Assembly: GCA_002686315.1 (NCBI GenBank)
Contig: NZBO01000003.1
Span: forward strand, 1 to 46,773
Direction: 5' to 3'
Length of the DNA: 46,773 bases
From: an archaeon
Lineage (GTDB): Archaea > Nanobdellota > Nanobdellia > Woesearchaeales > GW2011-AR9
The position numbers were made by a program, and so were the translations under genes. Shown one piece after another: positions 3,419 to 21,871 of the stretch; position 1 is the stretch's first letter, and every line of letters starts with the position of its first letter. The notes under the pieces were generated by a model, which was not told the origin of the DNA, made no database searches, and saw only the letters and a program-made list of their open reading frames with translations.

Positions 3419-4069
3419 TTAGGTACTTACGGGAAGCGAATACGTTCGTCGTAACGCTAACTCTTTTAATCGAGATAAATTTTTTGCTTTTTGTTTGCTA
3501 AATAACTTGTGTGCACTTGGTGTGCACCACGAATGTTGTTGCTCCAAAAAGTACACTTCAAACCCTAACCAAACATCCCAACTTTTCGCATATTCAAATA
3601 AATGACATTCCGGGTAATGTAACGTTTCCTTGCGTAAATCTTGCATCCACTCCCAGAATCCTTTCTTGCCTAATGCTGCTAAATCCGCATCACGTAACAC
3701 CTTTTCAAATTTGGTCACAGGTGTATATTTGAGATTTGTGGAAAGAATGGCGTTCCGTACTGTAATAATTTGTTCCTTACTAAAACCATGTTTCTCCATA
3801 AATTCTTCCGCTAAATCTGCACCAATTATTTCGTTCTCTAAATATTGTTTCGTAAACCCGGTATCGTGAAATAATGCGGCGATCGCAACTAAATATGTTT
3901 CCTGTTTGGTGAATTTTTCTTTTTTTGCAAGCATCATTGCAGTTGGCACAACACCTTTTATGGTATGTCCTTTTCGATGGTAATAGAACGTTTCATCTAA
4001 ATTAGCTAAATGTAAGCTTGCTACCTTCTTCGCTTCTTCTACATCTTTTTGCGTAATTATTTTCCCCAT
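3419..4069 (-). CDS. HD-domain metal-dependent phosphohydrolase
   Basis: H...HDTGF motif (AALFHDTGF) within a helical protein of about 200 aa. TTAAATATT TATA-like element about 18 nt upstream of the ATG. Confidence 0.7.
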   Translation of the reverse strand: MGKIITQKDVEEAKKVASLHLANLDETFYYHRKGHTIKGVVPTAMMLAKKEKFTKQETYLVAIAALFHDTGFTKQYLENEIIGADLAEEFMEKHGFSKEQIITVRNAILSTNLKYTPVTKFEKVLRDADLAALGKKGFWEWMQDLRKETLHYPECHLFEYAKSWDVWLGFEVYFLEQQHSWCTPSAHKLFSKQKAKNLSRLKELALRRTYSLPVST

Positions 4070-10556: not shown

Positions 10557-13016
10557 ATGGATATTAGGTTCTACCCTTACGATTTTACGTACAAAGTTCG
10601 CAATGATACAACCTACATGTACCTCTTTGCGCGAGGTGAGAATGGAGAGAAAATAATTGTGAGACATGAACATCTTCCTGCGTTCTTTGCAACATCTGTG
10701 AATATTAACAAAGTGGAATTTGAAAAGCGACTTGCGACATTACAAATAGATGCAAAAGGCAAGGTTGCGAACGTTCTCAAATATGAAATCGTGAAAAAAG
10801 ACTTGTTAGGGGAAACGAAAGAGTTTTACAAAATAACGGTGAATTATCCAAAAGCTGTTCCACTTCTTGCGAAACAAATTCAAGAATGGGGTATCACGTG
10901 TTACGAGCGTGATATCTTGTTTACACATCGCTACATTCGTGATATGGGTATCGTTCCCATGACGTTAGTGGAAGCAGAAGGAGATTTTATTGACGATACG
11001 TATTGTCGCGTTCCTGTTTTTGCGGCAACATCCGTAAAACAGCTGGAAAAGAAAGCGAGGGAAAAATGGAACGTGCTCGCGATTGATATTGAAACATACG
11101 CTCACTCTAAAGAGATTGACATGATCAAAAATCCAATTTTAATGATTGCATTCTATGGTAACGATTCGAAAGGGACCATCTATAAAAACATTATTACGTG
11201 GAAAGATTGTGGTCATCCTGACGCGGAAGTGCTGAATGATGAGAAAGCGATGTTGGAACGGTTTGTGGATATTCTAAAACAACAGCAACCAGATATTGTC
11301 ACTGGCTATTTCACGGATGGGTTTGATTTTCCCTACATCCAGGAACGTTGTGAGAAATGGGGTGTGAAACTCAACATCGGAATTGATGGATCATCGTTAT
11401 ATGTTCGAAAACGGCAAGGATTCCGTGATTCCGAAGCAAAAATTGCCGGTATGCTGCATTTAGACGTGCTTAAATTTGTGAAAAACATTTTTGGAAAAAA
11501 TATGAAAACTGATTCCTATTCACTGAACTCAGTTGCGAATGAATTGCTTGGCAGCACGAAGCATGACGTCAATTTAGATGAATTGTCTACCGCATGGGAT
11601 AAGGAAGATCAGACAAAATTGAAGACGTTTTGTAATTATAATCTGCAAGATACTAAATTGACATATGAATTATGTGACATGTTACTCTTTGACATGATTG
11701 AATTTGGGAAAATTGTGGGTGTACCTGTCTATGACGTTATTCGTATGAAATTTTCTCGGTTAGTGGAAAGTTATATTTTGAAACGAGCGATGGAATTTAC
11801 CGTTCTTGCACCAAACAAACCAGGTGATGATGAACTTGCACAACGTATGAATGAGTCTATTAAAGGTGGATTTGTCTACCAACCGCAGCCAGGATTATAT
11901 GATGATGTGGTGGTGTTTGATTTCAGATCATTGTATCCTACAATCATTACATCGCATAACATCTCGCCAGAATCATTCAAGAAAGATGGTGCCGCAAAAA
12001 TTGAGGTTCCCGGAATGGAAGGCTATTGGTTTAGTACAACGAAAGCGTTCCTTCCACGCGTTCTGGAAAATCTAATTACCATGCGAATGGAACTTAAAGA
12101 GAAGATTGCAACTGCAACGAAAGCAGGGAAAGATGTCTCGTTCCTTGAAGCTCGTTCATACGCGTACAAAATTCTTGCGAATTCATTCTATGGCTACCTT
12201 GCATTCTACGGTGCGAGGTGGTATAGTATTGAATCGGCAGCATCAACAACAGCGCTTGCACGCCATTACATTCAAGATACGATCGGTAAAGCAGAGACGA
12301 AAGGATTCAAGGTCGTGTATGGAGATACCGATTCCTGCTTCTTTACACTTGACGGGAAAACAGTGGATGACTCTTTACAATTTATGGAATCAATCAATAA
12401 AGATCTTCCCGGGTTAATGGAACTTGAGTTTGAAGGGTATTTCCCTCATGGTATCTTTGTTGCAATGAAAGGAGTGGACAAAGGTGCGAAGAAAAAATAT
12501 GCCCTTATTCGCAAAGATGGTAGTTTGAAAATTACCGGATTTGAAACAGTGCGGCGTAACTGGTCCAAACTTGCGAAAGATGTGCAAGCAGAAGTCTTAC
12601 AATTAGTCTTATCCGGGAAAAAAGATGACGCGATTGTGTACGTGAAAAAAGTTATCCGTGATTTGGAAGAAGGAATAATTGAGAATGAAGTGCTTCTTAT
12701 GCGAACGCAACTTACTCGCGAATTGTCAAAATATAAGGCATTGTCACCGCATGTCATGATCGCGAGAAAATTGGTTGAGAAAGGTGAACCAGTTCATGTT
12801 GGGATGATTATTGAATATGTGGTGGCGAAAGGAAGCGGGTTGGTTCGTGATCGTGCTACGTTATTGCAAGATGTTCCACAAGGCGGGTATGATGCAAATT
12901 ATTATATCACACACCAAATCATCCCTGCTGTCTCCCAAATTTTGGCTGTATTTGGTGTGAGTGAGGATTCACTTCTTGGAAAAGCGGAACAGAAAGGGTT
13001 GGGTTCATTTTTCTGA
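10557..13016 (+). CDS. polB: Family B DNA polymerase
   Basis: Exonuclease motif DIETY. Polymerase motifs DFRSLYPTII, KILANSFYGY and YGDTDS. C-terminal PIP box QKGLGSFF. TATA 10527-10535 lies 21 nt upstream. Confidence 0.95.
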   Translation: MDIRFYPYDFTYKVRNDTTYMYLFARGENGEKIIVRHEHLPAFFATSVNINKVEFEKRLATLQIDAKGKVANVLKYEIVKKDLLGETKEFYKITVNYPKAVPLLAKQIQEWGITCYERDILFTHRYIRDMGIVPMTLVEAEGDFIDDTYCRVPVFAATSVKQLEKKAREKWNVLAIDIETYAHSKEIDMIKNPILMIAFYGNDSKGTIYKNIITWKDCGHPDAEVLNDEKAMLERFVDILKQQQPDIVTGYFTDGFDFPYIQERCEKWGVKLNIGIDGSSLYVRKRQGFRDSEAKIAGMLHLDVLKFVKNIFGKNMKTDSYSLNSVANELLGSTKHDVNLDELSTAWDKEDQTKLKTFCNYNLQDTKLTYELCDMLLFDMIEFGKIVGVPVYDVIRMKFSRLVESYILKRAMEFTVLAPNKPGDDELAQRMNESIKGGFVYQPQPGLYDDVVVFDFRSLYPTIITSHNISPESFKKDGAAKIEVPGMEGYWFSTTKAFLPRVLENLITMRMELKEKIATATKAGKDVSFLEARSYAYKILANSFYGYLAFYGARWYSIESAASTTALARHYIQDTIGKAETKGFKVVYGDTDSCFFTLDGKTVDDSLQFMESINKDLPGLMELEFEGYFPHGIFVAMKGVDKGAKKKYALIRKDGSLKITGFETVRRNWSKLAKDVQAEVLQLVLSGKKDDAIVYVKKVIRDLEEGIIENEVLLMRTQLTRELSKYKALSPHVMIARKLVEKGEPVHVGMIIEYVVAKGSGLVRDRATLLQDVPQGGYDANYYITHQIIPAVSQILAVFGVSEDSLLGKAEQKGLGSFF

Positions 13017-13055
13017 TTCATAAGGCTTATAAACTAGTTCCTTCTAAGTAGTAGT

Positions 13056-13940
13056 ATGGGAATATTTACAACAGCACCATTTATATTTGAGCTTTTACTA
13101 CTATTTTTTATCGTCATCTTTTTTCTTGGAATTAGAATAATTCGGCCGACGCAGCGAGGTGTTAAAGAACGACTTGGAAAATATAACAAATTCTGTCGTC
13201 CCGGATTTAATTGGATCATTCCTATCGTCGATAAGATGTATAAAATCAACATTACGGAGCAGATGATTGATGCAGAACCACAGGAAATTATTACGAACGA
13301 TAATTTGAATGCACGTGTTGATGCACAGGTCTATTTTCGAGTTAAACCTGATGAAGCGAATGTCAAAGGATCACTTTATAATGTGAATGATTACGAGTTT
13401 CAGATAGTTAATTTAGCACGAACCACGCTACGTAATATTATTGGAACCTTAACCTTAAAATCAGCGAACAGTGAACGGGATAAAATTAACGGTGAGTTAA
13501 TGGTAACCTTGAAGAAGGAAACACACAACTGGGGTCTTGAGGTTGTTCGGACAGAGTTGAAAGAAATCGACCCGCCAAAAGATGTGCAGGATACCATGAA
13601 TAAAGTTGTGAAGGCTGAGAATGAGAAAATTGCCGCAACAGATTATGCAACCGCTACCGAGATTGAGGCAGATGGTGTCAGACGAGCAAAGATCAAAGAA
13701 GCGGAAGGGTTCAAGCAAGCTGAGATCTTAAAAGCGCAAGGTCAAGCGCAAGCAATTAAACTTGTGAATGAAGCAGCAGATAAATATTTTAAAGGTAATG
13801 CAAAAGAGCTTAAAAAACTTGAAACGGTGGAAGCGTCACTTATGCATAACGCGAAAATAGTCTTACCATCAGACTCAGAGTTAGTAAACGTTATCGGCGA
13901 TTTGGCTGGTGTTCTTCCTTTGAAGAAAGGGAAGAGGTAA
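13056..13940 (+). CDS. SPFH/band 7 (stomatin/prohibitin-like) membrane protein
   Basis: N-terminal TM segment, then a typical PHB-domain sequence (RPTQRGVKERLGKY..., NLARTTLRNIIG, GLEVVRTELKEIDPP) and an Ala/Gln/Lys-rich helical tail. Confidence 0.85.
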   Translation: MGIFTTAPFIFELLLLFFIVIFFLGIRIIRPTQRGVKERLGKYNKFCRPGFNWIIPIVDKMYKINITEQMIDAEPQEIITNDNLNARVDAQVYFRVKPDEANVKGSLYNVNDYEFQIVNLARTTLRNIIGTLTLKSANSERDKINGELMVTLKKETHNWGLEVVRTELKEIDPPKDVQDTMNKVVKAENEKIAATDYATATEIEADGVRRAKIKEAEGFKQAEILKAQGQAQAIKLVNEAADKYFKGNAKELKKLETVEASLMHNAKIVLPSDSELVNVIGDLAGVLPLKKGKR

Positions 13941-13960
13941 TTTCTTCTTTTTTTCTTTTT
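13941..13960 (+). terminator. Oligo-T tract immediately after the SPFH stop codon
   Basis: TTTCTTCTTTTTTTCTTTTT. Archaeal terminators are typically T-runs. A similar tract follows the stop at 26051 (26052-26067). Confidence 0.35.
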
Positions 13961-13999
13961 AAAGATAGATTTATATAGATTCGCCATGCATTGAGTATT

Positions 14000-14824
14000 A
14001 TGGATATAGGCGGACAAGCGGTAATTGAAGGCGTCATGATGCGGAATAAAGAAAAATTCGCTGTTGCAGTTCGGTTACCTGACGGCAAAATTAAAATCAA
14101 GAAAGAGAAAAGCACCATTTTCCCCAAATTCTTAAACATTCCATTTCTACGTGGTTTTATCGGCTTAGGATATATGATGTATGATGGTATTCGAGCACTT
14201 GTATGGAGTTCCAACCAGAATTTGGGTGAGGAAGAGAAATTAAGTAAGAAAGAAATCGTGTTTACTGTAACATTATCATTGCTTGCTTCTGTCATATTTT
14301 TTGTGGTGATACCCTTCTTTTCTGCACGCTGGATTCAATCTGAAGGAGTTTTGTTTGATGTTCTTGACGGAGTTTTCCGTGTGGTATTACTCTTAGTGTA
14401 TCTTGTTGGTATCTCGTTCATGAGTGATGTAAAGAAATTATTTCAGTACCATGGTGCGGAGCACAAAGCAATTTATTGCTATGAATCAGGTAAGAAGTTA
14501 ACAGTGGACAATGTCGCGACATTCTCACGGTTCCATCCACGATGCGGAACAACATTCCTTTTCTTACTTGTGTTCCTCTCAATCGTTATTTTCACCTTCA
14601 TTCAAGGGCCGTTATGGATTAAGTTAGGTGGTCGCATCTTGTTATTACCAGTGATTTCAGGCATCGGCTATGAGATCATTAAGTTGGGTGGGAAGTTCCA
14701 CCATACGCTTTTTTTTAGGGTATTACTCGCACCTGGTCTTTGGTTGCAACGTATCACAACCAGGGAACCAACCAAAAAGCAACTGGAAGTTGGTATTGCG
14801 TCACTCAAAGCTGTTGTTGACTAA
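14000..14824 (+). CDS. DUF1385-family membrane protein
   Basis: GGQAVIEGVMMR near the N-terminus and YHGAEHKAI, both hallmarks of DUF1385. The ORF track uses TTG 13991; ATG 14000 lies 22 nt after TATA 13970-13977. Confidence 0.75.
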   Translation: MDIGGQAVIEGVMMRNKEKFAVAVRLPDGKIKIKKEKSTIFPKFLNIPFLRGFIGLGYMMYDGIRALVWSSNQNLGEEEKLSKKEIVFTVTLSLLASVIFFVVIPFFSARWIQSEGVLFDVLDGVFRVVLLLVYLVGISFMSDVKKLFQYHGAEHKAIYCYESGKKLTVDNVATFSRFHPRCGTTFLFLLVFLSIVIFTFIQGPLWIKLGGRILLLPVISGIGYEIIKLGGKFHHTLFFRVLLAPGLWLQRITTREPTKKQLEVGIASLKAVVD

Positions 14825-14901
14825 TAGCGAAATGTGTCAACGCTCGTTACTACTTTCTGTGACAAGGCATGTTTATATAATTCGTTCTTTTCATTTTATG
14901 G

Positions 14902-15552
14902 GTGGTTGATCTAAATTTATCTGAGGAGATTTCTCACGCAGCGAGGGAGTATAGATTTTGTGCTGTTGTAGGTGCAACATATCGTGAAGGAATGCTAGGT
15001 ACAACTAAATCAGTTATTGGATTGCGAGAAAGATGTCGGTTTTTAGGGAGACGTGTAACTGTTGATACGGGTGCTGTTTGCTTAGACGTTTATAGTTCTC
15101 CAAAGGAAGAATTAAGGTTTCTGGTTAGGACTGGGTTGCACGATGCGACATTATTACACGATGCCGTAACAAATATTCGACGAGAAGGAAATTTAGATGA
15201 ATCAACACTTCAAATCCTCCTTTTAGCGTATCAACAAGGGACAAAACCGTGGAATGGACAGCGACTTCGTCGCATAATCGCAAGAACATCGAATGGAAGA
15301 AGTTCTATGGAATCGAAATTAAGTGAAGAATACCTTCGAAATACCAGACGAATTAAATCAGCTGTTGGATTTGCCTACGTTCACGCATTGCTGGAAGCTG
15401 AGCTTGGCGATGAAGGATTTGTTATAGAGCATGCTGATCATGGAAATTTTTTCTCACCCTTTGTGGTAGCGGGAAGAGAACACCGTTTTAATGCGTTTCT
15501 TAATAGATATAAACCTCCTAAAAGACAACAACGTCTTACGAACGCTACATAA
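14902..15552 (+). CDS. Hypothetical Arg-rich protein (216 aa), GTG start
   Basis: TATA TTTATATAA (14872-14880) lies 21 nt upstream of GTG 14902. No recognisable domain. The 3' end overlaps the rad50 3' end by 8 nt. Confidence 0.45.
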   Translation: MVDLNLSEEISHAAREYRFCAVVGATYREGMLGTTKSVIGLRERCRFLGRRVTVDTGAVCLDVYSSPKEELRFLVRTGLHDATLLHDAVTNIRREGNLDESTLQILLLAYQQGTKPWNGQRLRRIIARTSNGRSSMESKLSEEYLRNTRRIKSAVGFAYVHALLEAELGDEGFVIEHADHGNFFSPFVVAGREHRFNAFLNRYKPPKRQQRLTNAT

Positions 15553-17944
15553 TCTCGCTCACATGTTCGTTTTTCCGAACACGTAACACATTTTCAACGA
15601 AACTCTCTATCTTATTTTCATGACTGACGATAATTGTTTGACGTAACTGTAATGCGTCAAGCACGTCCCGTACTTTATCAAGTTGCTGTGCTGAAAACCC
15701 GTCTGTTGGTTCATCTAAAATGAGCAGATCTTTTGTTGTGATGTGATGAATAACGTCATTGATGACTCTGTTTAACGCTAACCTGTATGCCAAACTTGCA
15801 GATGTTTTTTCTCCACCACTTAAATTAGTAAATGAGACTTCATACCCATTTTGTTCTATTATTGGTGAGAACGCATCATCAATTCGCGCGTGAATTGTAT
15901 CATCATCAATTAAGATACTAAACCACTCTTGGAAAAGGTCGTTAAATAATGAATGGATACGTATCATAACATGTTTTTCGATGATTGTGGTAGTTGGAAT
16001 AAAACATGTATCAAGCCAGTGATACGTTTCTTTCATACGAACCCGTGTTTCATAGATCGTCGTGAGATTCAAAACCTTCTTCGCAATTTCTCCTTCATTT
16101 TTTGTGGTATGTGCCTGCTCACTTTGTAATGCCGCCATGTGTACTATCAGTTCTTTCTCCTGTTCACGTATCGACGTTAGTTCTTTTCGCCAATACGCAA
16201 TTGCATCACCAAACTCTTCAGACTCTTCAATGATTTTTCGTGCCTCGTCACTTTGTTTTTGTATTTTAGTGGTTGCATCTAGAACTTCCTTCTGCTGTTT
16301 TTGGAGGGATCCTAATTGAGATTGACGTACCGTGAATGCTCGTAGTTCATCCATTTTTGTTCGAAGTGTGGCAATTTCTTGTGAGTATATTTCGTGTTTA
16401 TTGGTCTCTTGCAATACGGTGAGCTGTCCCATTGCCCGATTATTTTGTTGGACTATTTCAATAAGTTGTCTTTTCTTCTTTCCATGCTGCTGCTCTAATT
16501 GATTCAAATGATCTATTTCAACGCTCAGTTTTGTGATCATTGATTCTTTTTCGTGAAGATCTGCACGTTTGGTTATATATGTTCCATATTCTTCCTGCAC
16601 CTTTCTTAACTCTTCTTGTAATCGTGTTTTCATCTGCGTTGATTTTGAAATGTCGTTCATTGCCTCATTATGAATTGTCTTTTTATGTTCCTCCCCAACA
16701 TGTTGCAAGCAGGTTGGACATTGCTCTAACGATTGAAGTTGTGTTTGTCTTTCTGTTGCCTGTGCGATCAACGTACCGTGTTGTGTGAGTGTTATGGTAA
16801 AATCTTCTTTTTTCTTGTCAAGCTTGGTGATGTGTGTTTCGACCATCTCTTTTTGTCTCAACTCTTCTTGATACTGCATTTGTTTCGTCTTTTTTTCAGG
16901 TAGAACGGTTATTCTTGCTGCGAGTTGCGCAAGTTCATGTTGTGATTCCCTTATTGATTTTTGACATTGAGAAATAGTTTGCTGTAATTGTGCTTCTTGT
17001 TTCATACCGTCTTCTCGTGCATGTTCTTTTTCTTTTATGTGCCGTTCTAATTCTAGTACGTTCCCGGTAGGTTTTGTTCCTAATTGCGATTGTAGCGTTT
17101 CTATTTGTTTTTGAAGACGTTCTTGTTGTCCTCTCTTTTCTTGCAACGTTGCCATGCTCGTTTTGTACAATTCCTGCGTTTTGTGAAGGTGACGTTGCTT
17201 TTCCTCCATCTTGTTACTCTCTTGTTCTGCGTGAAGACGTTTCGTTGTTACCAAATCTATCTTTGGTTGCAATGTTGTTATTTGTGTTGTAAGCATTTTC
17301 AAACGCTGCCTAATTTCTTCCAACCGTTGTTTTTCTGGTTCAAACGGTTCAAGCATTCCCGTCATTCTGGTAAGTTCGGCTCGCGTCGATTTGAGATAGA
17401 GTTGCATGTTTTCCCGAATTATTTTATACTTATCAATATTGAATATTTTACGAAGAACGTCTAACCGTGTTTCGGCATTGTCTTGTAAAATGAGTTTCAT
17501 CGTTTCTTGCGGTGTGTAGACTGTATACCGGAAAATGAAATTTTTGTTTTTACTTACCAGCTCAGTCGGATACCCAAGAACATTAATGATAGCAGATTTA
17601 AGCTCTACTGCAGTAAGATCTTTCTTCACACCATTTTGAATGATGTGACCAGGAAGTTGTTTAATGCCTGCTTTCTCTTTTTTTAAGTTACGTTGAATGG
17701 TAATATCCTGATTCTGGATTTGGAATCTTAACGTCACAGAACTTGAGATAGTTCCCTTACGCATTAAAAGTTCGCCAGGGAGATCTGGCCTTGACGTGCC
17801 AAACAGGGCGAATTCGATTGCTAACAGAAGGGACGATTTCCCACTTCCAATATCGCCAGAGAGAAGTGTGGAACCTTCCGTGAAGTTTACAGTTTGATTT
17901 TCATAGGAACGAATGTTACGTAATGTGAGTTCTTTGAGAAGCAT
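15545..17944 (-). CDS. rad50: Rad50-type SMC-like ATPase with a zinc hook
   Basis: N-terminal LTLRNIRSY...GDIGSGKSS (Walker A), a long coiled coil with central CPTC (encoded at 16709-16720), and C-terminal LSGGE and LLILDEPT. The start moves from GTG 17995 to ATG 17944 (MLLKEL...), 21 nt after CATATAAA (17966-17973). Confidence 0.8.
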   Translation of the reverse strand: MLLKELTLRNIRSYENQTVNFTEGSTLLSGDIGSGKSSLLLAIEFALFGTSRPDLPGELLMRKGTISSSVTLRFQIQNQDITIQRNLKKEKAGIKQLPGHIIQNGVKKDLTAVELKSAIINVLGYPTELVSKNKNFIFRYTVYTPQETMKLILQDNAETRLDVLRKIFNIDKYKIIRENMQLYLKSTRAELTRMTGMLEPFEPEKQRLEEIRQRLKMLTTQITTLQPKIDLVTTKRLHAEQESNKMEEKQRHLHKTQELYKTSMATLQEKRGQQERLQKQIETLQSQLGTKPTGNVLELERHIKEKEHAREDGMKQEAQLQQTISQCQKSIRESQHELAQLAARITVLPEKKTKQMQYQEELRQKEMVETHITKLDKKKEDFTITLTQHGTLIAQATERQTQLQSLEQCPTCLQHVGEEHKKTIHNEAMNDISKSTQMKTRLQEELRKVQEEYGTYITKRADLHEKESMITKLSVEIDHLNQLEQQHGKKKRQLIEIVQQNNRAMGQLTVLQETNKHEIYSQEIATLRTKMDELRAFTVRQSQLGSLQKQQKEVLDATTKIQKQSDEARKIIEESEEFGDAIAYWRKELTSIREQEKELIVHMAALQSEQAHTTKNEGEIAKKVLNLTTIYETRVRMKETYHWLDTCFIPTTTIIEKHVMIRIHSLFNDLFQEWFSILIDDDTIHARIDDAFSPIIEQNGYEVSFTNLSGGEKTSASLAYRLALNRVINDVIHHITTKDLLILDEPTDGFSAQQLDKVRDVLDALQLRQTIIVSHENKIESFVENVLRVRKNEHVSEIM

Positions 17945-18041
17945 GTTTCTTTCGTGTTGTGGTAGTTTATATGAATTATTGTGGTGGAAATGCACAAACC
18001 TTTAAATAGCACTCTTTCTTCTTTATATATGGTGATTATAT

Positions 18042-18377
18042 ATGGCAGATACTGACAATACACAAGCAATGTTACCGCATCTTTTAGGTTTATTTACATC
18101 ATTCATTGGACCGCTCGTTCTTTATTTTGTAAATAAAGAGAAAAATGATCCAATTGTGATGGCGAACACCAAACATGCACTCAATTTCCATTTAAGTTTG
18201 ATGATTTATGCTATAGGAGCGTTTATTTTGACTGTAACAATCATTCTAGCAATAATTGGAATACCGCTGTTGTTTGCGATTGAAATATTAGGTCTTGTGA
18301 CGGGCATTATTGGATCTATTCGAGGATACAAAGGCGAAGTATACAAATACCCACTCGAAATTCAATTTTTTAAATAA
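18042..18377 (+). CDS. Small membrane protein, DUF4870-like
   Basis: LGLFTSFIGPLVLYFVNKEKNDPIVMANTKHALNFHLS pattern plus two further TM segments. SD GGTGAT (18031-18036) lies 5 nt upstream of the ATG. Confidence 0.55.
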   Translation: MADTDNTQAMLPHLLGLFTSFIGPLVLYFVNKEKNDPIVMANTKHALNFHLSLMIYAIGAFILTVTIILAIIGIPLLFAIEILGLVTGIIGSIRGYKGEVYKYPLEIQFFK

Positions 18378-18427
18378 TTTTTTTTCTTTCCATAACATTT
18401 TTAACCTTGTAGCCTATCTACAGTTAT

Positions 18428-20323
18428 ATGAATACAACCGCCTTTCTTGCGTTATGTACAAGCAGAGGGTATTCCAGCGAGCAGAAAGGTATTTTTGGAC
18501 GAGCTATAACTGTCGCGAACTCCGTTTTACACGATAAAGAAAGGTTGGCGGGTGACACGTTCTTTGATCATAACCTCCGTGTTGCTGCCATATTAGCAGA
18601 AAATAAATCGGATCCTGACATTGTAACAACAGGGATTTTGAATGGTGTTTTAAAATATACAGGTAGCGCGTCGATTGTTGACCAGTTTGGGAAACCTATC
18701 GTCGAATTGCTTCATGGTGTGGAAGATATTAGCGCGATTAAAAGTAAAAATCCGCAACTTGAAGCTGATTCGTTACGTAAAATTTTGCTTACAACATTGA
18801 AAGATGTTCGTGTCATCATTGTCAAACTTGCATCCAAAGTTGAGAATTTACGTACCATCTCATCCCTTCCGGGAAGGCAGCAAAAAAAGATTGCGCAAGA
18901 TGTCCTTGACATATATGCACCTCTCGCAATGCGGCTTGGGTTAGATAAAATAAGAGTGCAATTGGAGGATTTAGCCTTTAGTGTACTTCATCCTAAGAAA
19001 TATGGCGAGATACGTAATTATATTGAAGAATCGAGGGAACAACGTGAACGAAATGTCGAGGAAGCATGTACACTTATTTCTTCTCTCGCGAAAGGAAAAG
19101 CGACAATTTTGAAGATCAAAGGACGGCCAAAACATATCTATAGTATTTTTAAAAAGATGAAAATACGTGGTGTAAAACTTGATCAACAATACGATTTACT
19201 GGGTATTCGAATCATTGTTAAATCGGTGAAAGATTGTTATACGTTACTTGGGTTACTTCATCAACACTTTCAGCCGATCCAAGGTAGGTTAAAAGATTAC
19301 ATTGCGAATCCAAAATCAAATTTCTATCAATCGTTGCATACCGGTGTGTTACTTCCAGGTACAAAACGACTCGAAATTCAAATTCGAACACCTGAAATGG
19401 ATGAGTTAGCGGAGGAAGGAATTGCTGCACATTGGCGATATAAGGGATTGAAGTCTGATGTTCTCTTCGAACGGAAAATGGCATGGCTAAAAGGTGTGCT
19501 TGATTTGCAAAAATCGGGGGAAAGTAAAGAGTTTCTTGAAACAGTGAAGGTAGACTTGTTTGGCGATAAAATTCATTGTTACACACCTAAAGGAGATGTC
19601 AAAGAGTTACCGAAAGATGCAACGCTTCTTGATTTTGCGTTTAGCATTCATGAAGATATTGGGAGTCATGCAGTTGGTGGGCGTGTAAATGGAAAATTCG
19701 TACCAATCAAGAAGAAGTTGGAAGCAGGAGATATCGTTGAAATCATCACAAACAAAAATCAACGTCCAAGGAGAAGCTGGATTAAGATTGTGACATCATC
19801 TAAGAGCAGGCAACGAATCAGGAAAGCGTTGAAACAATATGAATCACTTCCTGCATTTTATTACCGGCGGTTAAAACCTGTCGTGAAAGAAGAACTTGGT
19901 TTATTAGTTGAATCTGAAGAATTTCCGAACGCGATGTGTATCTTAGCGAAATGTTGCAAACCATTACCTGGTTCTGAGATAGTTGGCATATTAACGAAGA
20001 AAAGAATAATATCATCACATTCTCAGACATGCAGACATGTTGAGAAAGAGCAAAATAGATGGGTGCCTGTCCAGTGGAAAAATTCGTTCAACCAGCAAAT
20101 TCAGTTTTGTGTGGAAGCAGGGGAGCGAAGCGGGTTATTGGCAGATTTATTGCACACAATTGCACAAGCTGGTTTTGAGATTAAAGAAGCGAAAGCGAAA
20201 TTACTTGATTCTTATAATGCCCAGTGTTCTTTCACGGTTATTCCTCGAGATCTGGAACAATTACAAGAAATGGTTGGTCGTGTTAAGAAAGTGAAGGGCG
20301 TTAAGAAGATGTATTTTGAGTGA
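18428..20323 (+). CDS. Long RelA/SpoT homologue: pseudo-hydrolase, (p)ppGpp synthetase, TGS and ACT domains
   Basis: Synthetase motifs GRPKHIYSIFKKM, YDLLGIRIIV, DYIANPKSNFYQSLHT and EIQIRTPEMDELAEEGIAAHWRYK. TGS IHCYTPKGDVKELPKDATLLDFAFSIH. C-terminal ACT-like GLLADLLHTIAQAGFEI. The hydrolase HD motif is replaced (ILNGVLKYT). Confidence 0.85.
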   Translation: MNTTAFLALCTSRGYSSEQKGIFGRAITVANSVLHDKERLAGDTFFDHNLRVAAILAENKSDPDIVTTGILNGVLKYTGSASIVDQFGKPIVELLHGVEDISAIKSKNPQLEADSLRKILLTTLKDVRVIIVKLASKVENLRTISSLPGRQQKKIAQDVLDIYAPLAMRLGLDKIRVQLEDLAFSVLHPKKYGEIRNYIEESREQRERNVEEACTLISSLAKGKATILKIKGRPKHIYSIFKKMKIRGVKLDQQYDLLGIRIIVKSVKDCYTLLGLLHQHFQPIQGRLKDYIANPKSNFYQSLHTGVLLPGTKRLEIQIRTPEMDELAEEGIAAHWRYKGLKSDVLFERKMAWLKGVLDLQKSGESKEFLETVKVDLFGDKIHCYTPKGDVKELPKDATLLDFAFSIHEDIGSHAVGGRVNGKFVPIKKKLEAGDIVEIITNKNQRPRRSWIKIVTSSKSRQRIRKALKQYESLPAFYYRRLKPVVKEELGLLVESEEFPNAMCILAKCCKPLPGSEIVGILTKKRIISSHSQTCRHVEKEQNRWVPVQWKNSFNQQIQFCVEAGERSGLLADLLHTIAQAGFEIKEAKAKLLDSYNAQCSFTVIPRDLEQLQEMVGRVKKVKGVKKMYFE

Positions 20324-20325
20324 AG

Positions 20326-21321
20326 TCATCCCATCTTCCGCACTACATCAATAATCCTATTACTATATCCCCATTCGTTATCATACCACGCTACTACTTT
20401 GACTAAATCACCATCAACGATTGTTCTGAGAGAATCGAAAACGCAAGAAGACGGGTTATCAATAACATCACTAGAGACGATTTCTTCATTTGTATATTCT
20501 AAAATATTTTGCATTTTCTTTGTTTTAGAAGCCTTTTTGAAGAGGGAGTTAACATGTTCTACTGATGTTTTTTTCTTCACTTCGCACACGAAATAAATGA
20601 CACTGCCATCTGCAACTGGAACTCGCATGGCAGATGAGTGTAATTTTGCGCCAACTTGCGGAAGAACTTCCATAACAGCCTTTGCAGCACCTGAAGTTGT
20701 AGGGATGATATTAGTAGCAGCTGCTCTCGCACGTCGTAAATCCTTATGTGATCCGTCAATAATCCGTTGTGTGGAGGTATAGGCATGTGAGGTGACCATA
20801 AATCCAACTCGGATGCCTAATTTGTCGTGGAAAATCTTTACTAATGGCGCGAAGCAGTTCGTTGTACACGAGGCGTTCGAGACGATTGTATCTTTTTTGT
20901 TAAGACTATGATCATTCACTCCCATCACGATTGTTTTGATTCCTTTCTCTTTCGCGGGAGCGGAGAGAATAACCTTTTTTGCACCTGCTGCAAGATGTTT
21001 GCTTGCTAACTCTTTGGTTAAGAAATGGCCAGTACAATCAATAACGATATCGATTTTTAATTTCTTCCACGGTAATTTTTCAGGATCTGATTCTCGAAAT
21101 GCTTTTATCTTTGTTTTGTTAAGGTAAATGTGATCGTCGTCATGATTGATCTCTGCGTTAATTTTGCCATGAACAGAATCATATTTAAGAAGATGTGCCA
21201 ACGTTTTTGTGGGAGTAGAACGACTGTTAATGGCAACAAATTTGATGCCTTTCTGCTTATACCCTGCACGAAGAATCATTCTCCCAATTCTCCCAAAGCC
21301 GTTAATTGCAACTCTAATCAT
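20326..21321 (-). CDS. gap: Glyceraldehyde-3-phosphate dehydrogenase, class I (bacterial/eukaryotic type)
   Basis: MIRVAINGFGRIGR, SNASCTTNC and WYDNEWGYS. The ORF-track start 21504 adds 61 non-homologous aa and overlaps the GNAT gene. ATG 21321 lies 21 nt after TATATAAA (21343-21350). Confidence 0.9.
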   Translation of the reverse strand: MIRVAINGFGRIGRMILRAGYKQKGIKFVAINSRSTPTKTLAHLLKYDSVHGKINAEINHDDDHIYLNKTKIKAFRESDPEKLPWKKLKIDIVIDCTGHFLTKELASKHLAAGAKKVILSAPAKEKGIKTIVMGVNDHSLNKKDTIVSNASCTTNCFAPLVKIFHDKLGIRVGFMVTSHAYTSTQRIIDGSHKDLRRARAAATNIIPTTSGAAKAVMEVLPQVGAKLHSSAMRVPVADGSVIYFVCEVKKKTSVEHVNSLFKKASKTKKMQNILEYTNEEIVSSDVIDNPSSCVFDSLRTIVDGDLVKVVAWYDNEWGYSNRIIDVVRKMG

Positions 21322-21418
21322 AGTTGGAAGAGTTTTTTGAGATTTATATAGGTTTGGATTTGATCCATATACTCCATATACAGAATCTATATCAATATCA
21401 ACAATTTTCTTTTTTATA

Positions 21419-21871
21419 ATGAGTGTACGTAGGGGAAAAGAGGAAGATGTACAACAGTTAGTGAGTTTATATACGGCATTCTTTGAGGAGCATAACCATT
21501 TCAATAAGAGCCATGACCAGATCGTTATGTACCTGAAAGAGAAAATGCAAGAACATGATCTTTATGTTTCTGAGAAGGATGGTGTTCTGAAAGGTGCATT
21601 ATTTCTTATTTTAAAATCACGTGGTGAGCATGCACATTGGAAACTGCGTCATTTTGCGTTTGATTCATTGGAAGCAGCTGAAGAATTGCTTGTTGAAGTT
21701 GAGAAACGTGTGCAAGAAGAATCAGCCACTGCAAAAATTGAGTTAACAATTGCAGAGAATGAGGAAGGCATGCCATTCTATGAAGAGCATGGGTACAAAC
21801 GGGAAGCGGTACTTGCTAACCATTACCGGTGGGGAGAAGCGTGTTATGTCTATGGGAAGAGTTTTGGCTAA
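21419..21871 (+). CDS. GNAT-family N-acetyltransferase
   Basis: 150 aa with a GNAT-like layout (VRRGKEEDVQQLVSLY..., C-terminal FYEEHGYKRE). Confidence 0.7.
   Translation: MSVRRGKEEDVQQLVSLYTAFFEEHNHFNKSHDQIVMYLKEKMQEHDLYVSEKDGVLKGALFLILKSRGEHAHWKLRHFAFDSLEAAEELLVEVEKRVQEESATAKIELTIAENEEGMPFYEEHGYKREAVLANHYRWGEACYVYGKSFG

Follow-up and report, generated by a model that had tools for sequence, protein, structure and literature searches.

The window analysed here, a stretch of 46,773 nucleotides of DNA from a DPANN archaeon of the Woesearchaeota type, carries on its forward strand an open reading frame that starts with ATG and encodes a protein of 631 amino acids (Table 1). Against the NCBIfam model TIGR00691 (spoT_relA) the protein scored 565.3 bits, above the cut-off of 499.2, as expected for a long RelA/SpoT homologue (RSH). 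Its best PDB match by phmmer was the B. subtilis Rel (6YXA; E = 1e-115, 38% identity). The coordinates and length in the initial annotation were exact, and all the motifs listed there (GRPKHIYSIFKKM, YDLLGIRI, DYIANPKSNFYQSLHT, EIQIRT, AAHWRYK, ILNGVLKYT, and KLASKVENLRT) were found in the protein.

Pfam called the HD_4, RelA_SpoT, TGS, and ACT_4 domains, in this order. The zinc-finger Cys/His residues could be aligned, and C504, C509, C510, H531, and C535 are invariant among the relatives in the same GTDB family, hereafter the clade. The TGS residue H408, also invariant in the relatives, is the equivalent of H432 in E. coli RelA, with which that enzyme reads the 3' end of the tRNA. The helical domain between the TGS domain and the zinc finger comprises only about 30 residues, where enzymes of bacterial length have a median of 102, and the gaps corresponding to the roughly 70 missing residues were seen in the alignments to both M. 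smegmatis Rel and E. coli RelA. A linker in the remnant had an AlphaFold2 pLDDT below 50. The full long-RSH architecture proposed previously is thus present in its HD_4, RelA_SpoT, TGS, zinc-finger, and ACT parts, but the helical domain is largely absent.

An oligo-T run follows the DUF4870 gene that precedes the RSH gene, and an A/T box (ATTTTTAA) is located about 27 nt ahead of the ATG. This arrangement resembles an archaeal promoter for a leaderless mRNA. A sigma-70 scan upstream of the gene gave scores no better than those of shuffled sequences.

Table 1. Positions of the RSH gene, its domains, and its upstream elements in the window.
Feature	Position	Strand	Evidence
Long RelA/SpoT homologue gene, 631 aa, [hS] type	18428..20323, stop codon included	+	ORF list, Pfam, NCBIfam, PDB phmmer
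Oligo-T run (18378-18389) and A/T box ATTTTTAA (18397-18404)	18378..18404	+	sequence reading
Pseudo-hydrolase (HD_4) domain, aa 26-172	18503..18943	+	HD_4 113 bits, 1.1e-32; model superposes on Rel N-terminal fragments
N72-G73-V-L-K76-Y77 replacing Rel H77-D78-x-x-E81-D82	18641..18658	+	alignment to 6YXA
S136 replacing Mn ligand D144 (KLASKVENLRT vs KLADRLHNMRT)	18833..18835	+	alignment to 6YXA
Synthetase (RelA_SpoT) domain, aa 232-340	19121..19447	+	Pfam 132 bits, 1.6e-38
TGS domain, aa 382-441, with H408	19571..19750	+	Pfam TGS 5.5e-20; alignment to RelA 5IQR
Helical-domain remnant, aa 442-499 (helix 458-471 and low-confidence linker)	19751..19924	+	alignment gaps; AlphaFold2
Zinc-finger (ZFD/RIS-like) domain, aa ~500-550	19925..20077	+	aligned to RelA/Rel C-terminal domains
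ACT/RRM domain, aa 558-627	20099..20308	+	Pfam ACT_4 33.9 bits, 5.2e-8; clade identity 0.67

Hydrolase and synthetase domains

The ungapped alignment of the N-terminal domain with 6YXA showed that R39, H48, and N140 (R44, H53, and N148 in Rel) are retained, while N72, G73, K76, Y77, S136, and E139 stand in place of H77, D78, E81, D82, D144, and H147, respectively. The replacement of the five residues H77, D78, E81, D82, and D144 by N, G, K, Y, and S removes three of the four Mn ligands and both catalytic acids, as the initial annotation had recognized; the N72-G73 pair lies at 18641-18646, where it had been placed. Neither the HD..ED nor the KLADRxHN motif of bifunctional Rel/SpoT enzymes is intact, and the score against the SpoT equivalog NF008303 was 425, far below the cut-off of 947. 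The loss is clade-wide. Among 122 clade members, the columns of N72 to Y77 are hypervariable, and the D144 column holds N, T, S, or A.

We considered whether the lost residues could lie elsewhere in a shifted register. The AlphaFold2 model (pLDDT of about 85-93 across residues 1-330) superposed on Rel catalytic fragments with TM scores of 0.84-0.90 overall, including S. aureus Rel (7OIW; TM = 0.90, rmsd = 2.6 Å) and RelSeq (1VJ7; TM = 0.85-0.88). The superposition showed no shift, which argues against a register shift hiding the hydrolase residues. The HD_4 fold is kept, while its catalytic residues are lost.

An enzyme that remains bifunctional, hydrolyzing its product with substitute residues, appears highly improbable. 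Several orthologues are annotated as 'bifunctional (p)ppGpp synthetase/guanosine-3',5'-bis(diphosphate) 3'-pyrophosphohydrolase' in NCBI and JGI, and three residues of the former pocket (R39, H48, and N140) are conserved throughout the clade. However, the five diagnostic residues are all replaced in an ungapped alignment on a fold that superposes without shift, and the 122 sequences contain 106 different 10-mers at the replaced columns, so that no alternative catalytic set is conserved. Judged from these motifs, the public name is wrong for this clade.

The synthetase domain presents a different picture. R233, K235, D256, R261, R287-L-K289-D290, K296, N298, Y300, H304, E316, and Q318 are all present, and are invariant both in 47 clade members and in a 16-sequence archaeal alignment. 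Six of them (K296, N298, Y300, H304, E316, and Q318) are the guanine-site residues shared with Rel. The synthetase motif, G-R-L-K-D, is of the RxKD type, which in B. subtilis Rel reads RFKD. The good conservation of the synthetase core noted previously was thus verified residue by residue.

The mean pairwise identities in the clade were 0.72 for the synthetase, 0.71 for the TGS, 0.67 for the ACT, and 0.64 for the zinc-finger domains, versus 0.54 for the pseudo-HD domain and 0.41 for its former catalytic helix. Conservation across more than 100 genomes covers the catalytic and guanine-nucleotide-binding residues of the synthetase, the histidine of the TGS domain, the Cys and His residues of the zinc finger, and the ACT/RRM domain. 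A relic or scaffold that makes no alarmone, as the already dead hydrolase half could suggest, is very unlikely, since the reading frame is intact in all these genomes and constraint is highest precisely at the catalytic residues of the synthetase. The combination of a dead hydrolase and an intact synthetase corresponds to the RelA-like pattern proposed in the initial annotation, and would place the protein in the monofunctional class, labelled [hS] in the Atkinson nomenclature.

Genomic context, distribution, and origin

The contig also carries genes for a family-B DNA polymerase (PolB), Rad50, an archaeal LonB, and an AMP-phosphorylase-like protein, and its G+C content is even along the 46.8 kb. 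The orthologues in related genomes of the same family are located on contigs of 0.3-1.5 Mb, such as a 753-kb contig (G027:C1) in a two-contig genome of 1.5 Mb. The host assembly is 82% complete, with a bin contamination of 4.3%. A second RSH, on contig C65 of the bin, was evaluated as a partner enzyme and rejected. The gene order of C65 follows that of the window (C-terminus of PolB, DUF1385, Rad50, and RSH, at 40-70% identity), indicating that it belongs to a co-binned archaeal relative and represents contamination of the bin. The hydrolase motifs of its RSH are degenerate too. The contamination and the foreign C65 lend some plausibility to a bacterial contaminant or a chimeric contig as the source of our gene, but C65 is itself archaeal, and in view of the archaeal genes on our contig, its even composition, and the large contigs of the orthologues, we give this explanation almost no credence.

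Archaeal long RSHs had been described as rare in the initial annotation. This does not apply to the present lineage: one long RSH each was found in 135 of 300 high-quality genomes, covering 107 of the 225 genera of the phylum. The presence of RelA/SpoT in these archaea is already known, as a survey had reported it in 41.7% of Woesearchaeota (mSystems 2021, PMC8407392). The DPANN genes treated in that part of the survey, for which an acquisition from Bacteria was predicted, are the same genes as here; its treatment is a presence/absence count that neither separates hydrolase-dead from bifunctional forms nor mentions the compact C-terminal region (PMC8407392). Of the 114 genomes of the family, 105 gave an HD_4 match, which in nearly all of them was the long RSH, and 31 of the 36 other genera have it as an intact single-copy gene.

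The implied recent import was likewise not borne out. Other families of the order retain LLHDVVEDT and KLADRLHNMRT, and in our trees the family clade (support 100) is nested among such archaeal forms, with the bacteria in a separate, starred clade (support 99/97). The whole GTDB family shares the degenerate hydrolase; the loss is ancestral to the family, whose form descends from archaeal long RSHs in which the hydrolase motifs were intact. According to an AU test, decay of this kind took place at least twice. Two archaeal sequences, L045 and L046, appeared as the sister of the degenerate clade in a quick tree (support 99), and this placement was dropped when a fuller, more careful tree gave only 54/82. 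The bacterial sample contained SpoT-like, but no RelA-like, proteobacterial sequences. As these sampled sequences have intact hydrolase motifs, we withdrew an earlier likening of the clade's long stem to 'RelA'. A specific bacterial donor is not identifiable, since the archaeal forms lie outside the single bacterial clade of this sample in a tree with no known root.

Proposed alarmone synthesis and removal

The protein is probably a resident archaeal long RSH that functions as a monofunctional (p)ppGpp synthetase, representing an independently arisen archaeal analogue of RelA. It would transfer pyrophosphate from ATP to GDP or GTP, and by analogy with Rel/RelA it would be switched on, through its C-terminal region, when a stalled archaeal ribosome carries an uncharged tRNA. 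With so little of the helical domain left, the geometry of activation would have to differ, and both the roughly 70 absent residues and the archaeal nature of the ribosome make RelA-style activation by the ribosome uncertain. The pseudo-hydrolase domain, with R39, H48, and N140 kept, may serve as a structural or allosteric module.

The initial annotation had also asked how a synthetase without a cognate hydrolase could have its product removed. No further HD_4 match was found in this genome at E ≤ 1, and hence no stand-alone SAH/Mesh1; a search for Ppx/GppA in the same genome was also negative. The absence of an RSH-type hydrolase thus holds for the assembled genome, but with 82% completeness a small hydrolase could sit in the missing part. 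An RSH-type hydrolase is absent from about 60% of the family, including most near-complete genomes, while about 40% of the members have small HD_4 proteins with intact catalytic motifs. Five Nudix and three generic HD proteins are encoded here, and none reached any NCBIfam equivalog cut-off; they are possible, unspecific candidates for a non-RSH degrader. With these candidates and the small HD_4 proteins elsewhere in the family, alarmone removal is not the paradox it had seemed. Any clearance of the alarmone in this genome would depend on an enzyme outside the RSH family, for example one of the five Nudix hydrolases, or on dilution; about 40% of the sister genomes have the extra small HD_4 hydrolase for this role. 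In E. coli, a synthetase that is not accompanied by a hydrolase is toxic, which argues for very tight control, an unrecognized degrader, or a different role. A 303-aa ORF on contig C41, considered as a small alarmone synthetase, scored 19.6-21 bits against a cut-off of 27 and had no PDB or NCBIfam match.

A different role could take the form of an active synthetase with another product (pGpp or (p)ppApp) or another trigger (a small molecule or a partner protein acting via the ACT/TGS domains, in place of uncharged tRNA bound to the ribosome), or even a role in host interaction. The near absence of the helical domain, the archaeal ribosome, and the lack of an RSH hydrolase in most of the family would fit such a function, as would the view of DPANN archaea as symbionts (PMC8407392). 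Nevertheless, we regard it as unlikely, because the guanine-site residues are invariant, as are the TGS histidine and the zinc finger, which contact the tRNA and ribosome in RelA, and because the protein showed neither a signal peptide nor a context suggesting secretion.

Beyond the monofunctional synthetase itself, we tentatively raise the less probable possibility of a family-wide (p)ppGpp-type stringent response on archaeal ribosomes, served by a self-evolved RelA analogue and mostly devoid of an RSH hydrolase, in which clearance might be achieved by non-RSH/Nudix enzymes or the alarmone might act on the host outside the cell. If true, archaea would here have their first alarmone system, and one at odds with the rule in bacteria by which a synthetase must be partnered by an RSH hydrolase. 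One long RSH, clearly under purifying selection, is present in almost half of the genomes of the phylum, and this family would have reached independently, and usually without a partner hydrolase, the Rel-to-RelA type of specialization seen in beta- and gamma-proteobacteria. The 631-aa protein offers a defined, clonable object for asking whether archaeal alarmone synthesis exists, a model for the reading of tRNA charge on the archaeal ribosome by a compact C-terminal region with no helical domain, and an entry to the question of what removes the alarmone when an RSH hydrolase is absent.

Comparison with known enzymes

One of the closest known counterparts is E. coli RelA (5IQR, 5KPV), a monofunctional long RSH of the [hS] class. 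RelA is the best full-length structural match of the model, and shares with the archaeal protein the domain order, a pseudo-hydrolase that has kept the fold but not the catalytic residues, an intact synthetase, the TGS histidine (H432 = H408), the zinc finger, and the ACT/RRM domain. The origin is separate, with the archaeal protein outside the bacterial clade of a sample that lacks RelA-like proteobacterial sequences. The score against the RelA equivalog NF008124 was 378, versus a cut-off of 728. The synthetase motif of RelA is the acidic ExDD, whereas the archaeal protein has RLKD of the RxKD type. Furthermore, the archaeal protein differs from RelA in the roughly 70 missing helical-domain residues, the absence of a SpoT partner, and the archaeal host.

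By sequence (38%) and N-terminal fold, the closest enzymes are the bifunctional Rel proteins of Firmicutes and Actinobacteria (6YXA, 1VJ7, 7OIW), which have the same RxKD-type motif. These enzymes possess H53, H77, D78, E81, D82, and D144 and hydrolyze (p)ppGpp, while the archaeal protein keeps only the H53 equivalent; they also contain the full helical domain, in contrast to the archaeal protein. The compact long RSHs of other Woesearchaeales and related families (L045-L054, L148-L150, and L154-L158) share with the 631-aa protein its phylum, its side of the tree, and the truncated helical domain; they are 620-660 aa long and 34-41% identical to it. Their LLHD..EDT and KLADRLHNMRT motifs are preserved, and bifunctionality is therefore predicted for them, unlike for the protein described here.

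Catalytic sites of the long RelA/SpoT homologue

The ORF list contains the ATG-initiated reading frame described in the initial annotation, and Pfam places four domains along it (see table). With 565 bits against the NCBIfam RelA/SpoT subfamily model TIGR00691 (cut-off 499), the protein is a long RelA/SpoT homologue (long RSH) by HMM score; it falls below the NCBIfam equivalog cut-offs for SpoT (425 vs 947) and RelA (378 vs 728). An oligo-T run and an A/T box, the latter ~27 nt before the ATG, precede the gene, a layout that would fit an archaeal promoter for a leaderless mRNA.

The top match of known structure was B. subtilis Rel (6YXA, E 1e-115), and the alignment runs without gaps across the hydrolase motifs, allowing direct residue numbering. 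Because of the residue equivalences to 6YXA, the query is without three of the four hydrolase Mn ligands and both catalytic acids. The synthetase residue set is complete, in agreement with the initial annotation of degenerate hydrolase and intact synthetase motifs. An AlphaFold2 model built from 47 relatives is confident in its N-terminal half and superposes on the Rel catalytic fragments 7OIW (TM 0.90, rmsd 2.6 A) and 1VJ7 (TM 0.85-0.88). In this model the hydrolase domain retains its fold, and a register shift that hides the HD and ED residues is unlikely in view of the superposition. We conclude with high confidence that the query is a hydrolase-dead, synthetase-competent long RSH.

Features of the window and its genome, and residues of the query aligned with B. 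subtilis Rel (6YXA)
Feature	Location or query residue	B. subtilis Rel
Long RSH ORF, 631 aa	18428-20323 (+)	
DUF4870 membrane protein, 111 aa (Pfam 4.6e-24)	18042-18377 (+)	
GAPDH (Gp_dh_N, Gp_dh_C)	20326-21504 (-)	
Generic HD-domain protein, 216 aa (PF01966, 25 bits; no NCBIfam assignment)	3419-4069 (-)	
Arg/His/Asp-rich ORF, 303 aa	C41:12055-12966 (+)	
HD_4 (Pfam)	aa 26-172	
RelA_SpoT (Pfam)	aa 232-340	
TGS (Pfam)	aa 382-441	
ACT_4 (Pfam)	aa 558-627	
Hydrolase	R39	R44
Hydrolase	H48	H53
Hydrolase	N72	H77
Hydrolase	G73	D78
Hydrolase	K76	E81
Hydrolase	Y77	D82
Hydrolase	S136	D144
Hydrolase	N140	N148
Synthetase	R233/K235	R241/K243
Synthetase	D256	D264
Synthetase	R261	R269
Synthetase	RLKD	RFKD
Synthetase	K296/N298/Y300/H304	K304/N306/Y308/H312
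Synthetase	E316/Q318	E324/Q326

Judged from aligned sequences, the hydrolase degeneration is a clade-wide property. Among 122 aligned clade members (~60% identity), the position of D78 is G in nearly all, the ED-pair position is hypervariable (106 distinct 10-mers) and the D144 position is N, T, S or A. The synthetase residues of the query, TGS H408 (= RelA H432) and the zinc-finger Cys/His are invariant among 47 clade members. Mean pairwise identity is 0.72 in the synthetase, 0.71 in TGS, 0.67 in ACT, 0.64 in the zinc finger, 0.54 in the pseudo-hydrolase and 0.41 in the former catalytic helix, as one would predict if the synthetase and the regulatory tail both work and the hydrolase domain remains as a mere scaffold.

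The archaeal forms are all 620-660 aa long, and their TGS-to-zinc-finger stretch measures ~30 residues, as against ~100 in bacterial enzymes. In the AlphaFold2 model of the query it comprises one helix and a disordered linker.

Genomic context and distribution

The 46.8-kb contig is even in composition and carries genes for a family-B DNA polymerase, a Rad50-type ATPase, an archaeal LonB and an AMP-phosphorylase-like protein. The closest homologues of the query are named Woesearchaeota or Nanoarchaeota, several of them on 0.6-1.5 Mb contigs. A DUF4870 gene lies immediately upstream of the RSH gene and a GAPDH gene is its convergent downstream neighbour; GAPDH, DUF1385 and RSH together suggest that a sizeable share of the contig genes is bacterial-derived.

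The genome assembly (1.15 Mb, 81 contigs, 82% complete, 4.3% contamination) contains a second RSH on contig C65 (7,692 bases), cut by the contig end and likewise degenerate in its hydrolase motifs. C65 is colinear with window positions 12582-19705 (PolB C-terminus, DUF1385, Rad50, enolase, RSH) at 40-70% protein identity; we therefore rejected a paralogue and assign it to the same locus of a co-binned related archaeon. Single-copy counts for this bin are thus slightly too high. The DUF4870 gene is not in the corresponding position in C65, where enolase precedes RSH.

One orthologue at 50-66% identity was found in 31 of the 36 other genera of the window's GTDB family. A fuller family scan, counted by hand, gave an HD_4 match in 105/114 genomes, nearly all with a long RSH, and across the phylum one long RSH occurs in 135 of 300 high-quality genomes (107/225 genera). 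Because of these counts, the enzyme is not rare in this lineage, contrary to the initial description of archaeal occurrences. A 2021 comparative study reports RelA/SpoT in 41.7% of Woesearchaeota, with a predicted bacterial origin (PMC8407392), and our phylum counts agree with that figure. The long RSHs of the lineage are missing from the classical survey (PMC3153485), and recent reviews still call the enzymes rare in archaea and the alarmone undetected there (PMC8646023, PMC10249747).

Origin of the hydrolase-degenerate form

Copies from the order's remaining families, at 34-41% identity, retain R..H, LLHDVVEDT and KLADRLHNMRT, and hydrolase motifs are likewise intact in families f83, f86, f96, f95, f93, f27 and f33. 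Degeneration is also seen in families f37 and f34, in part in f50, and, within other orders, in f81 and f99. After clustering at 50% identity, the full motif set is present in 10/27 short-form representatives vs 112/121 of bacterial length.

In an IQ-TREE phylogeny (72 rows, 640 columns), bacteria form a single starred clade (99/97), and the archaeal compact forms therefore lie together on the opposite side. The clade of the window's family (100/99) sits inside a larger all-degenerate clade (99/97), and two more all-degenerate clades are starred, so that the starred branches require no fewer than three state changes. Constraining the three degenerate clades, picked after the tree was seen, to one group was rejected (p-AU 0.003). 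No intact form is placed firmly as sister of the family clade (54/82). No bacterial donor could be named from the bacterial tree sample, which comprised the 80 best tblastn loci and representatives and is without RelA proper. We read these data as a single ancient entry into these archaea, or an even earlier presence, probably followed by repeated hydrolase decay; the window's family is the largest such case among those seen.

Three loci of f83, in another order of the class (L148-L150), combine fully intact hydrolase motifs with an acidic ExDD-type synthetase motif (KEFDD, REFDD), a type usually linked to RelA. Within the window's family, genome G021 encodes a hydrolase-dead copy (C49:5212-7089, 61% identity) and an intact-motif copy (C13:2787-4268, locus L050, 39%), a pattern resembling a RelA/SpoT pair, assuming that both contigs come from one organism.

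Alarmone removal and relation to known enzymes

The initial annotation had also proposed a synthetase without a cognate hydrolase. This holds in part: neither a further HD_4 protein nor Ppx/GppA was found in the 82% complete genome, but it encodes five Nudix proteins and three generic HD proteins, none of which could be identified as a known (p)ppGpp hydrolase. The three HD phosphohydrolases, one of them encoded in the window, could be candidate alarmone hydrolases.

Counted by hand from the family HD_4 table, the long RSH is the sole HD_4 match in ~60 of the 105 positive genomes, including 17 of the 29 genomes at least 95% complete, among them the closest relative (G010; 98% complete, 6 contigs). 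An additional HD_4 match occurs in ~40 family genomes, for ~24 of them a protein of 160-290 aa; a 385-430-aa type is found in at least 17 family genomes and is absent from the window's genome. Both types have intact RxxG..H, LHDxxEDT and ADxxHN motifs, and a minority of the family would therefore possess a trans-acting small alarmone hydrolase (SAH). By these counts, the lone synthetase is the commoner state. The larger type (L146, G085:C26; L147, G012:C3) shows a weak HD_4 match, intact HD, E(D/E) and KLADRMHN, and a long C-terminal extension; it seems to represent a larger, uncharacterised relative of SAHs.

The 303-aa ORF on contig C41 matches RelA_SpoT below threshold (19.6-21 bits), contains SAS-like strings (GGVKGAASSLEK, YKALHTT, FEIHIVT) and has no PDB or NCBIfam match; it may encode a highly divergent small nucleotidyltransferase.

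The query combines a dead hydrolase site with a synthetase site and sensing modules that are conserved. It would use ATP and GDP or GTP to make (p)ppGpp, and uncharged tRNA on stalled ribosomes would presumably switch it on via TGS, zinc finger and ACT; we hold such RelA-like ribosome control with moderate confidence. The pseudo-hydrolase domain, which keeps R39, H48 and N140, may act as a structural or allosteric module, and removal of the alarmone would fall to a non-RSH enzyme or, in genomes that have one, to an SAH.

RelA/SpoT in DPANN is already reported in PMC8407392. In the literature searched, we did not find the family-wide hydrolase-dead, synthetase-intact state (Atkinson class [hS]), its origin from intact-motif archaeal forms, the recurrence of hydrolase loss, the missing helical domain or the patchy SAH complement. 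The main value of the query is that archaeal alarmone synthesis becomes directly testable.

Bacterial synthetases are described as having an RSH hydrolase alongside them (PMC3153485), whereas a lone long RSH is common in the window's family. By sequence, the query is nearest to bifunctional Rel, with which it shares the RxKD motif, but it has lost the hydrolase site. It lies outside the RelA subgroup, yet is predicted to work like RelA.
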